13,045 nucleotides of DNA from the UHGV virus genome UHGV-0111502; one strand, 5' to 3'. Shown piece after piece: positions 7,604 to 10,485 of this stretch (its first letter is position 1; the number at the start of each line of letters is the position of its first letter). This DNA is from a virus. The notes under the pieces were generated by a model. That model ran no database searches. It was not told where the DNA came from and saw nothing but the letters and a program-made list of their open reading frames with translations. Made by a program: the position numbers and the translations under genes.

Positions 7604-8062
7604 TTATTTTAAGCACTGCGTCCTGATGTACTCCTGCAGGTAGTTAACCTGCGCGGTTATCCTGTCGATTCCACTTCGGAGACGGTAATAATTGAGTTCA
7701 GCATCTGCTGTAAGTCCTGGGCTTTCTCCATCGCCCATGCCGCTGGCTCCGGTCGTTGACTTTGCACAGGTGGCGGCGACTTGCAGGCGCTTACGCCCAG
7801 CAGAAACATCAGCACGGAGACTTTCGATAGTCGCGTTAGCATCAGCAAGCTCCTTTGTGTATCTTGCGTCGAGTTCTGCTACATCACGTTGACGCTTCCG
7901 CATGTCAGCGATGGTGGCGGTCGCCTGCTTCAGCTCACTGACTTTTTTATCTCGCTGTTCTTTGTAGGCGATGGCGTTATCACGGTAATGATTGACCGCC
8001 CACGACAGGCAGACGATGATGCAGATAACCAGAGCGGAGATAATCGCGGTTACTCTGCTCAT
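7604..8062 (-). CDS. Rz: Spanin, inner-membrane subunit (Rz-like)
   Basis: [40 protein letters not shown]... has an N-terminal transmembrane helix followed by a coiled-coil periplasmic domain, very similar to lambda Rz as remembered. The ATG at 8062 overlaps the upstream stop (ATGA) and follows a GGGGGA Shine-Dalgarno; the track start at 8074 is a GTG. Confidence 0.85.
7657..7842 (-). CDS. Rz1: Spanin, outer-membrane lipoprotein subunit (Rz1-like), embedded out of frame inside Rz
   Basis: ORF lies entirely within Rz in another frame. The ATG at 7842 follows an AAGGAG Shine-Dalgarno; the product [20 protein letters not shown]... has a signal peptide with lipobox VSAC followed by a proline-rich segment ([16 protein letters not shown]), typical of Rz1. 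Confidence 0.75.
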
Positions 8063-8256
8063 TGTTTCCCCCACAAACAGACTTCACGCTCAATCTCACG
8101 GCGAGTCATCAGTCCTTTCCATTGATTACCGCCAGCGTATGTCCAGCGCCGTAGCTGATCACATGCGCCTTTAATATCACCCTGGTTTATTTTGCGAAGA
8201 AGCGTCGATGTTCTGAAATTGCCAGCACCCGTTGTTAACTTATCCATGGATTTCAT
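8059..8256 (-). pseudogene. Lysis-cassette remnant: in-frame fusion of a pinholin (S21/EssD-type) N-terminus to the C-terminal about 55 codons of a phage-21/RrrD-type lysozyme
   Basis: 65-codon [68 protein letters not shown]. Its first 6-10 residues match the dual-start N-terminus of the phage 21 pinholin (MKSMDK...) as remembered; the remainder matches the extreme C-terminus of the RrrD/R21-type endolysin. The catalytic N-terminal region and most of the holin are absent. A GAGGTGGGG Shine-Dalgarno is retained upstream of the ATG. Confidence 0.65.
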
Positions 8257-8829
8257 AACCCCACCTCGCAGACAAAGCGGGTGTAAATTGAGGGAATACT
8301 ACGAAACGTAACAGACTCGGAGTCAGTGAATAACTCAGGTATTGGGTTATCAGCTAATATCGAGACTCAAAAAATGGAAAAACCCGCTCGACGGCGGGTT
8401 TAAGCTGTGTGACGAAGTAACCACTCTTAACAGCATAACCAATTTTTTACGTACGTAAACTACTAAATGATATTTGCGAGAATGCTACCGAGTATTGAAA
8501 ACACCACTACAAATACATAAGCAAATCTCAACAAATAACCAACAAATAATTTCCAGCGTTATTTTTAGCCAATTTAAATTGAACCTTCAAATTATAGAGC
8601 ACTTATAAATAACAGCCATTAATATAAATTGGCTAATAGATTTATTTTTATTCAGCCAAGAGCCATGAATAGGATTCGATAGAAAAAAGTTCAGATAAAA
8701 ATAGAGATCTACTTCACAAATTAAACGAGAAACCAAAACTTACATCTTGAAATAATCACATTGATTAGATGAATATTTATCGCGCAGTGACATCATTTTT
8801 TAATAATAGTTCAAAAAAAAGGGCTCACG

Positions 8830-9912
8830 ATGAAAAAATTAACAGTGGCAATTTCTGCTGTAGCTGCATCAGTACTGATGGCGATGTCTGCTCAGGCAGC
8901 TGAAATTTATAATAAAGACAGTAACAAGCTGGATCTGTACGGGAAAGTTAATGCTAAGCACTACTTCTCCTCTAATGATGCAGATGATGGTGATACTACT
9001 TATGCCCGTCTTGGCTTCAAAGGTGAAACCCAAATCAACGATCAACTGACTGGTTTCGGTCAGTGGGAATATGAATTCAAAGGCAACCGCGCTGAATCTC
9101 AAGGTTCTTCCAAAGACAAAACCCGTCTTGCATTTGCAGGCCTGAAATTTGGTGATTACGGCTCAATCGATTACGGCCGTAACTACGGTGTAGCATACGA
9201 CATCGGTGCGTGGACTGACGTCCTGCCAGAATTCGGTGGTGATACCTGGACCCAAACAGATGTGTTCATGACTGGTCGCACTACTGGTGTTGCAACTTAT
9301 CGTAACAACGACTTCTTTGGTCTGGTCGATGGCCTGAACTTTGCTGCTCAGTATCAGGGTAAAAATGACCGCACTGACGTAACTGAAGCCAATGGTGATG
9401 GTTTCGGTTTCTCCACTACTTATGAGTATGAAGGATTCGGCGTGGGTGCAACCTATGCTAAATCAGATCGCACTGACGGTCAGGTCGCCTATGGTAAGAG
9501 CAAATTCAATGCCTCCGGCAAAAATGCGGAAGTATGGGCTGCAGGCCTGAAATATGATGCGAACAATATCTATCTGGCTACCACATATTCTGAAACTCAG
9601 AATATGACCGTTTTTGGTAATAACCATATTGCAAACAAAGCACAAAACTTTGAAGCAGTAGCACAATATCAGTTTGACTTCGGTCTGCGCCCATCTGTTG
9701 CTTACCTTCAGTCAAAAGGTAAAGACCTTGGTGTTCATGGTGACCGAGACTTAGTCAAGTATGTCGATGTCGGTGCTACTTACTACTTTAATAAAAACAT
9801 GTCCACTTTTGTTGATTACAAAATCAACTTAATTGACGATAGTAAGTTTACCAAAACAGCTGGTATTGATACTGATGATATCGTTGCTGTAGGTCTGGTT
9901 TACCAGTTCTAA
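8830..9912 (+). CDS. nmpC: Phage-encoded outer-membrane general porin (NmpC/Lc/OmpC-OmpF family), full length with signal peptide
   Basis: 360-aa [26 protein letters not shown]|[25 protein letters not shown]... ending in the porin C-terminal signature ...[12 protein letters not shown] at 8830, TAA at 9910-9912; oriented opposite to Q and the late genes, as nmpC/lc are in DLP12/PA-2-type phages. Confidence 0.9.
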
Positions 9913-9920
9913 TCTGATTA

Positions 9921-9959
9921 CGAAAAAGATATGTTGCGGGAGGCGTTGCCTCCCCAACA
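9921..9959 (-). terminator. Candidate intrinsic terminator on the minus strand (tR'-like), just downstream of the putative late promoter and just before the antisense porin
   Basis: Plus-strand 9932-9959 tgttgcgggaggcgttgcctccccaaca forms a 12-bp stem with one bulge and a 3-nt loop; on the minus strand the hairpin is followed directly by UAUCUUUUUCGU (reverse complement of 9920-9931). Confidence 0.45.
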
Positions 9960-10025
9960 TATAAGTGGCTCCCTCAAGCCACTTCCTTTAGAAGCACAAC
10001 CTTGCATCTAACTATATAAACCTTC

Positions 10026-10062
10026 TGTTATATATTACCCTTTATTTTTGGGGGCGTCTCAA
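10026..10062 (-). promoter_or_regulatory. Candidate Q-dependent late promoter (PR'-like)
   Basis: On the minus strand: TTGAGA (complement of 10057-10062), an 18-nt spacer, then TAATAT (complement of 10032-10037). It lies about 65-75 bp downstream of the Q stop, similar to the Q-to-PR' spacing in lambda; the predicted short transcript would end at the 9921-9959 terminator. Motif-based inference only. Confidence 0.4.
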
Positions 10063-10085
10063 CGCCCCATTTTTAATAATTTTTA
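10043..10085 (+). terminator. Candidate intrinsic terminator on the plus strand (end of the porin transcript / 3' UTR)
   Basis: GC stem GGGGCGT(10051-10057)/ACGCCCC(10062-10068) with loop CTCA, followed on the plus strand by AUUUUUAAUAAUUUUU. On the minus strand it is followed by an A-run, so it is unidirectional. Confidence 0.45.
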
Positions 10086-10101
10086 GTAAACAATTGGCAT
10101 A

Positions 10102-10485
10102 TTAATTAGAGTTATTAACAACGATATCCATCTCTAACCGGATATCTAATGCCATTAACATCCCTTCAATTATGCCCTCAGCCTTTTGTAACCTTTTCCC
10201 GATATAACCATCAGAGCAGCAATGCTTACCTGCCAGTGACATGAATGTCATACCGACTATATAATAATCTACTAATAAATCGTGCAAATCGCTGTTGTTC
10301 TTTTTCAGACGGGCCATGCACCCGCAAATGATCATCGCGTCATCGTCACAACATTGCGGGCGAGATTTTACTTTTGAAGGAATTAATCCCTTAAAACCGG
10401 CAGCAATGGACGACCAGGTCACATCCTCATGATTATTTGCCGCCCATGCGCCCCAGCGTTCAAGAACCATCTGAATATCACGCAT
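10102..10485 (-). CDS. quuD: Late-gene antiterminator Q (phage 82/QuuD type, 127 aa)
   Basis: [62 protein letters not shown]... matches the 82-type Q/QuuD sequence as remembered, including the Cys-rich zinc-binding region. The true ATG at 10485-10483 overlaps the upstream stop (TAATG); the track start at 10494 is a GTG. Confidence 0.8.

Follow-up and report, generated by a model that had tools for sequence, protein, structure and literature searches.

The window analyzed here is the whole 13,045-nt stretch of the virus genome UHGV-0111502, and it is part of an Escherichia coli lambdoid prophage. On its plus strand, between the holin and the gene for the antiterminator Q, it carries a porin gene, and the 3' untranslated region (UTR) of this gene almost certainly corresponds to ipeX, the gene for a small RNA (sRNA) that the literature places on prophage DLP12 (PMC12197685) and on phage PA-2 and describes as a repressor of ompC and ompF. 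The porin stop codon occupies positions 9910-9912, and 189 nt separate it from the Q stop codon (10102). Within this RNA, we predict an unpaired segment that could pair with the ribosome-binding regions of both host porin messages. The features of the locus are as follows.

8830-9912, plus strand: Lc/NmpC-type porin gene, 360 amino acids (aa) (open reading frame [ORF]; Pfam Porin_1, E = 1.9e-151)
9913-10079, plus strand: IpeX RNA region of 167 nt, the 3' UTR of the porin mRNA, which begins just past the stop codon and reaches into the U run of the terminator (K-12 and PA-2 match, fold)
9929-9962, plus strand: hairpin 1 (HP1), 15 pairs (fold; 4 pairs changed on both sides)
9963-9984, plus strand: hairpin 2 (HP2), 8 pairs, with the invariant, anti-Shine-Dalgarno-like loop CCCUCA at 9971-9976 (fold)
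9988-10011, plus strand: hairpin 3 (HP3) (fold; 3 pairs changed on both sides)
10019-10047, plus strand: unpaired conserved stretch, the proposed seed (best-conserved unpaired segment across lineages)
10051-10075, plus strand: Rho-independent terminator with a 7-pair G+C stem, the loop CUCA, and a U run (fold)
10102-10485, minus strand: quuD, a Q21-family late antiterminator gene (annotation in identical genomes)

The initial annotation had put forward an IpeX-like sRNA in the porin 3' region as a hypothesis, and the alignment with K-12, the match to PA-2, the gene context, and the length all support it. When the window is aligned to the ipeX region of K-12, the nmpC-quuD spacer of DLP12 matches with a single difference, an A at position 10006 (A10006) where K-12 has T; this corresponds to identity at 165 of 166 positions over the UTR and to one mismatch in ~190 nt of spacer. 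In addition, the DNA downstream of lc in PA-2 (J02580) is identical to that of K-12 over the UTR stretch. Since a single base separates the window from the DLP12 spacer in which ipeX was described, we regard this as the known IpeX locus and not merely as an IpeX-like one, and we have very little doubt that positions 9913-10079 of the plus strand are ipeX. Castillo-Keller, Vuong and Misra (2006) reportedly placed ipeX between the nmpC stop codon and a predicted terminator, with an identical sequence downstream of PA-2 lc. As published boundaries we took this reported placement together with the length of 167 nt given in a review (PMC12197685); 9913 + 166 gives 10079, which falls inside the terminator U run and agrees with that length. 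A search of Rfam at the gathering score and at E up to 10 returned no IpeX family and chance-level matches only (e.g., GcvB and RsaOG), and the K-12 RefSeq feature table includes micF and micC and has no entry for ipeX.

The ipeX locus is therefore not new as such, having already been known; here, it is joined to an intact porin gene. In K-12, by comparison, IS5 lies 62 nt upstream of the porin stop codon. Because the porin gene is intact in the window and IS5-interrupted in K-12, the porin promoter can drive IpeX synthesis here, as in PA-2. According to the review, IpeX is made from the porin promoter within the porin transcript and requires processing (PMC12197685), and judging from its position, it would constitute the 3' end of the porin mRNA at this locus.

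The initial annotation had also located a plus-strand terminator about 140-170 nt past the porin stop rather than directly after it, and both halves of that statement hold. The stem-loop GGGGCGU-CUCA-ACGCCCC occupies 10051-10068, at a distance of 139-156 nt from the stop codon, with AUUUUUAAUAA coming next, while HP1, the hairpin nearest to the stop, has no plus-strand U tail. The additional hairpin that had been described between the two (gtggctccctcaagccac) does exist, but its position was one base off (9965-9982 instead of 9964-9981), and two further pairs extend it to 9963-9984, i.e., HP2. Overlooked at that stage were HP3 and HP1, the latter being the strongest hairpin of the region, 17 nt after the stop codon; HP1 may act in 5'-end protection or cassette insulation. 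On the minus strand (9918-9962), HP1 is followed by CUUUUUCG, a possible stop for read-through of the Q operon into the antisense of the porin gene, and the T run of this strand is not kept in phage P7.

The 167-nt plus-strand RNA folds at -58.7 kcal/mol, as against -30.6 +/- 3.6 kcal/mol for 200 dinucleotide shuffles (z = -7.87), none of which folded as well. The minus strand folds too, with a z of -4.3. The plus-strand fold comprises four local elements (HP1, HP2, HP3, and the terminator), with an AU-rich, largely unpaired stretch between HP3 and the terminator. The U-rich sequence UUUAUUUUU precedes the terminator stem and AUUUUU follows it, a layout that, as far as sequence can tell, is typical of an Hfq-binding 3' module.

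Pairing of IpeX with host messages was evaluated as the sum of the hybridization energy and the opening energies of both partners, the targets being the translation-initiation regions of K-12 ompC, ompF, and ompA and of the phage porin. MicC and MicF were used as positive controls, and both were recovered at their known sites; ompA and the phage porin were the negative controls. The predicted sites and energies are as follows.

MicC (control) with ompC -31..-14: -17.4 kcal/mol
IpeX 106-136 (window 10018-10048) with ompC -32..-6: -16.8 kcal/mol
MicF (control) with ompF -16..+11: -16.1 kcal/mol
P7-type IpeX with ompF -15..+10: -15.8 kcal/mol
IpeX with ompF -15..+10: -10.3 kcal/mol
IpeX with ompA -74..-65: -4.3 kcal/mol
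IpeX with phage porin mRNA -13..-6: -2.8 kcal/mol

The predicted ompC duplex is made up of two helices. In the first, AACCUUCUGUUAUAU (10019-10033) forms 15 contiguous pairs, one of them G.U, with AUAUAACAGAGGGUU, over the Shine-Dalgarno sequence GAGGG; in the second, which lies upstream in the message, CCUUUAUUU (10039-10047) forms 9 pairs with AAAUAAAGG. This duplex covers the ribosome-binding site and the MicC site, its predicted stability is that of the MicC-ompC pair, and opening the seed costs 4.4 kcal/mol. The ompF match is weaker: UAUUACCCUU (10033-10042) is complementary to the Shine-Dalgarno region, at the MicF site, and 10 + 3 pairs are predicted. Collectively, the predicted ranking (ompC > ompF >> ompA) mirrors the reported target pattern. 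The HP2 loop CCCUCA, which is complementary to (U)GAGGG in the ompC and ompF leaders, represents a second candidate contact.

Among 611 dinucleotide shuffles of IpeX, a single one reached the ompC value (-13.8 in a shorter target context). When the unpaired stretch was scanned along 100 kb of the K-12 chromosome, both strands included (200 kb, 33,308 windows), no window reached the ompC hybrid value of -26.7, the best background value being -22.6; on the same scale, 51 windows reached the ompF hybrid value and 3,995 the ompA value. Of 5,426 E. coli genomes, 5,367 carry the ompC leader itself at 99% identity or more. Other ways of scoring the pairing were less telling. The longest complementary run with G.U allowed is uninformative for AU-rich RNAs, with shuffles averaging 10 pairs (ompC still at 15/2000), duplex folding of full-length IpeX against 210-nt targets yielded meaningless end-to-end duplexes, and hybrid-only energy without accessibility picked sites buried in hairpins.

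With respect to distribution, a 351-nt query (9800-10150, comprising the porin end, the spacer, and the quuD start) matches 2504 of the 5426 complete E. coli genomes. The search motif turned up 135 times when viral contigs were scanned for the pattern and the BLAST matches and fetched loci were added, and 31 distinct UTR sequences were extracted automatically from these occurrences. Three lineages can be told apart among them (DLP12/PA-2 type, L055 type, and P7 type), and each lineage, folded separately, yields HP1, HP2, HP3, the unpaired stretch, and the terminator (z = -9.8, -8.4, and -5.7). The L055 and P7 lineages retain an HP1 of different sequence, HP2 has 17 invariant columns out of 22 and a U-A to A-U swap in its stem in P7, and HP3 occurs in P7 as a perfect 11-pair version. 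The search pattern contained the HP2 loop as a fixed element, but P7 came from the BLAST search and did not depend on it. MAFFT puts the hairpins of the P7 type in the wrong places; the 35 loci (34 distinct) were therefore realigned with a covariance model, and 97.3% of the cells in the resulting alignment are paired. In P7, identity amounts to 50-61% in the stems, 82% in HP2, and 80% in the unpaired segment 10019-10038; so high a value for the unpaired stretch would be expected under selection on single-stranded sequence rather than on shape alone.

P7 is a P1-like phage, and its homologous 3' UTR (~70% identical) stands after nmpC, the next gene being ssb and not Q. Since the UTR follows a porin gene there with no adjacent Q, the RNA region travels with the porin gene and not with the Q/late-promoter module. 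The P7 locus (L010, 1714-1898) and a second one (L034) represent a diverged IpeX homologue of P1-like phages, with an 18-nt insertion before the terminator. We also observed that insertion elements have repeatedly cut ipeX off from the porin promoter (L128, 3870-4590; L001, 3592-4786): in L128, the porin stop codon and HP1 are separated by an IS200-type transposase gene, and in phage 434B, IS5 lies 62 nt upstream of the porin stop codon, as it does in K-12. The pattern scan of species-representative genomes returned E. coli and one Streptomyces contig, with nothing else outside E. coli and its phages; this 442-nt contig (L013, Streptomyces alkaliterrae NZ_VJYK02000722.1) carries the ipeX HP2 motif and is probably contamination from E. 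coli or a phage.

Taken as a whole, we consider it probable that the region is ipeX in the Lc/NmpC porin 3' UTR of DLP12/PA-2-type lambdoid prophages, acting through the pairing proposed here. The mechanism on its own is a closer call, and we lean slightly toward antisense occlusion of the ribosome-binding site. In this model, the unpaired stretch 10019-10047 would pair with ompC at -32..-6, the site used by MicC, and more weakly with the ribosome-binding region of ompF, the MicF site, and either pairing would block translation. The predicted pairing with the ompC leader, a matter of computation only, may be the one new point of this analysis. Literature on the Hfq dependence of IpeX is mixed. 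The 2006 abstract is said to report effects on both OmpC and OmpF, Hfq-dependent for ompF and not for ompC, and a 24-pair duplex with ompC versus a 10 + 3 match with ompF would fit that pattern.

Several points weigh against this explanation. The 2006 paper reportedly saw no complementarity between ipeX and the required region of ompC and suggested a mechanism other than base pairing, and its abstract is said to give a 247-bp untranslated region, which does not match the ~140-167 nt from stop to terminator here and in K-12. A10006 creates an A.A mismatch in HP3 and costs ~4 kcal/mol (minimum free energy of -58.7 kcal/mol versus -62.9 kcal/mol in K-12). This base is private: among the 135 occurrences (the window and all fetched loci), it is found in the window and in the identical locus L002, all others having T, with C in the P7 type. 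The plus strand showed no sigma-70-like promoter from which a separate transcript could start, and IpeX production would thus depend on porin transcription and possibly on processing. As for ompF, its value was reached by 62 of the 611 shuffles (and both values together by none), and the match is not significant alone. Finally, the covariation amounts to 8 pairs changed on both sides, as opposed to 1.6 +/- 1.0 for column shuffles (0/500) and 1-5 for slid controls; with no more than three lineages, and with an alignment built to fit the structure, it supports the fold without proving it.

Among the alternatives, the one that survives best is that IpeX acts indirectly, e.g., through protein titration or through the HP2 loop CCCUCA, its complementarity to ompC being incidental; we judge this possible, though rather unlikely. 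The absence of complementarity and the Hfq-independent effect on ompC that the 2006 abstract reportedly describes speak for this alternative. HP2 with its loop is the most conserved element, which speaks for it as well, as do the insignificance of the ompF match when taken alone and the wording of the review PMC12197685, which we counted for a non-pairing mechanism. An incidental match is nevertheless hard to square with 24 pairs that lie exactly on the Shine-Dalgarno sequence and MicC site of a known target, with a predicted energy equal to that of the validated MicC-ompC pair, and with the rarity of comparable matches (1/611 shuffles and 0/33,308 genomic windows). Moreover, the stretch that matches ompC is conserved, unpaired, and beside the terminator, and a long duplex would by itself explain independence of Hfq for ompC along with dependence for the shorter ompF match.

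A second alternative, that the region is an ordinary structured 3' UTR with a terminator, which stabilizes the porin mRNA and insulates the cassette and has no trans role in this strain, appears improbable to us. In its favor are the missing plus-strand promoter, the weakening of HP3 by A10006, a minus-strand HP1 with CUUUUUCG that could halt read-through from the Q operon, and the insertion elements that sever the region from the porin promoter in K-12, 434B, and L128. Set against this, DNA of essentially this sequence has been reported to repress OmpC and OmpF, the T run of the minus strand is absent from P7, and the unpaired seed is more conserved in P7 than the stems (80% versus 50-61%), which a purely structural role does not explain.

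The position of the region next to Q raises the question of late transcription. The usual arrangement in lambdoid phages has Q followed directly by the late promoter PR', the Q-loading site, and the terminator tR'. In the window, the DNA that follows Q in Stx phages finds its counterpart (~79% identity) farther on, at 8462-8378 of the minus strand, with a promoter-like TTTACG/TATGCT, a short leader, and a terminator at 8401-8380. This element is probably PR'/tR' with an StxS-like short leader RNA. A search for a lambdoid PR'-qut-tR' region in 9913-10101 was accordingly negative, the homology mapping to 8462-8378 instead. Since post-Q homology is found at 8462-8378 and not in 9913-10101, the porin gene with its 3' region (~8463-10101) is a cassette inserted between Q and PR'. 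We also noticed that, immediately past the end of quuD, TTGTTTACTAAAAATTATT (10066-10092, minus strand) is similar to the -35 portion of PR' (GTTTACG..TAAAAA), which could be a junction remnant, a duplication, or chance. That the hairpins themselves are the minus-strand PR', Q-loading site, and tR', as in lambda and Stx phages, is very hard to maintain: the canonical position directly after Q, the terminator-like look of HP1 with its T run, the minus-strand folding (z = -4.3), and the GTTTAC..TAAAAA motif would suit it, but the Stx-phage promoter, leader, and terminator homology lies at 8462-8378, no promoter-like site was found on the minus strand in 10101-9913, P7 has the homologous UTR after its porin gene and no Q there, and the plus strand folds much better (z = -7.9).

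Regarding the remainder of the window, the porin is 91% identical to Lc of PA-2 and 63% identical to OmpC of K-12. The minus strand encodes the large terminase subunit, Nu1, Rha, Rz, and a holin remnant and, further on, the Q antiterminator and a primase-like gene. QuuD matches the Q21 structures in PDB (6JNX/6P18, E = 1e-7) and is 78-81% identical to Q proteins of Stx phages; its gene is convergent with the porin cassette and marks the downstream boundary of the latter. Inside quuD, in antisense orientation and directed away from ipeX, there is a near-consensus sigma-70 promoter-like site (10236-10265, plus strand; GTGACA, 18 nt, TATAAT; 11/12). The holin remnant region includes a 65-aa ORF (8059-8256, minus strand) in which the first ~10 codons of the holin gene essD are fused to the last ~55 codons of the lysozyme gene rrrD; relative to DLP12 of K-12 and to strain ECCWS199, ~0.5 kb was deleted between GGGTG microhomologies. 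As a result of this deletion, the lysis cassette of the prophage is defective.

If the predicted pairing is right, the long-unclear mechanism of IpeX would be an ordinary antisense block. Independently of the mechanism, the locus is a model case of a prophage that rewires the outer-membrane composition of its host, since the transcript that supplies the phage porin would also bring, at its 3' end, a repressor of OmpC and OmpF. Given that the phage porin mRNA does not carry these sites, a lysogen would swap the host porins for that of the phage. OmpC is the receptor of PA-2, and the swap would consequently confer superinfection exclusion as well. Both OmpC and OmpF are phage receptors and routes of antibiotic entry, and since the region is present in nearly half of the complete E. 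coli genomes searched, it could influence porin levels across many clinical strains. We suggest, more tentatively, that IpeX could be a phage-borne mimic of MicC and MicF that works through one conserved stretch, with the DLP12 and P7 lineages tuned to ompC and ompF, respectively. This idea is perhaps somewhat less likely to be right than wrong; if true, it would overturn the view, held since 2006, that IpeX has no complementarity.

Compared with known systems, the closest is IpeX of DLP12 and PA-2, which likewise lies 3' of an nmpC/lc-type porin gene facing quuD, on the same strand and with the same terminator, one base apart. The window differs from DLP12 of K-12 in the U-to-A change at 10006 in HP3 and in its intact porin gene. 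Leader RNAs of the PR'-tR' type, such as StxS and lambda 6S, are also a prophage source of sRNAs between Q and the lysis genes; their counterpart in the window is the element at 8462-8378, which lies on the opposite strand and is distinct from ipeX.

The sites predicted for IpeX coincide with those of MicC (ompC -32..-6 versus -31..-14) and MicF (ompF -15..+10 versus -16..+11), and the energies are similar. IpeX holds both halves of the MicC 5' seed, GUUAUAU and CCUUUAUU, 5 nt apart, and the P7-type seed UUAUUUAUUACC is identical to the MicF seed over 12 nt, its predicted ompF pairing being as good as that of MicF. The likeness is one of predicted target site only, as the Rfam models of MicC and MicF gave no match to the region at the gathering score or at E up to 10. 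MicC and MicF are chromosomal and Hfq-dependent and have their seed at the 5' end, whereas that of IpeX is internal and adjoins the terminator; unlike them, IpeX comes from the 3' UTR of a prophage mRNA, and it shares no overall homology with either.

DapZ, CpxQ, and MicL are sRNAs derived from 3' UTRs that end at the terminator of the parent mRNA. IpeX has the sequence hallmarks of such Hfq-type sRNAs, i.e., a conserved and accessible seed, a shared terminator, a U-rich 5' flank, and a poly-U tail. As in that group, its conserved seed lies a few nt upstream of a shared Rho-independent terminator, with a U-rich stretch and poly-U tail, and it is likewise reported to be made from a longer transcript (PMC12197685). 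It differs from these sRNAs in being prophage-borne and in having a 167-nt form with three extra hairpins upstream of the seed.

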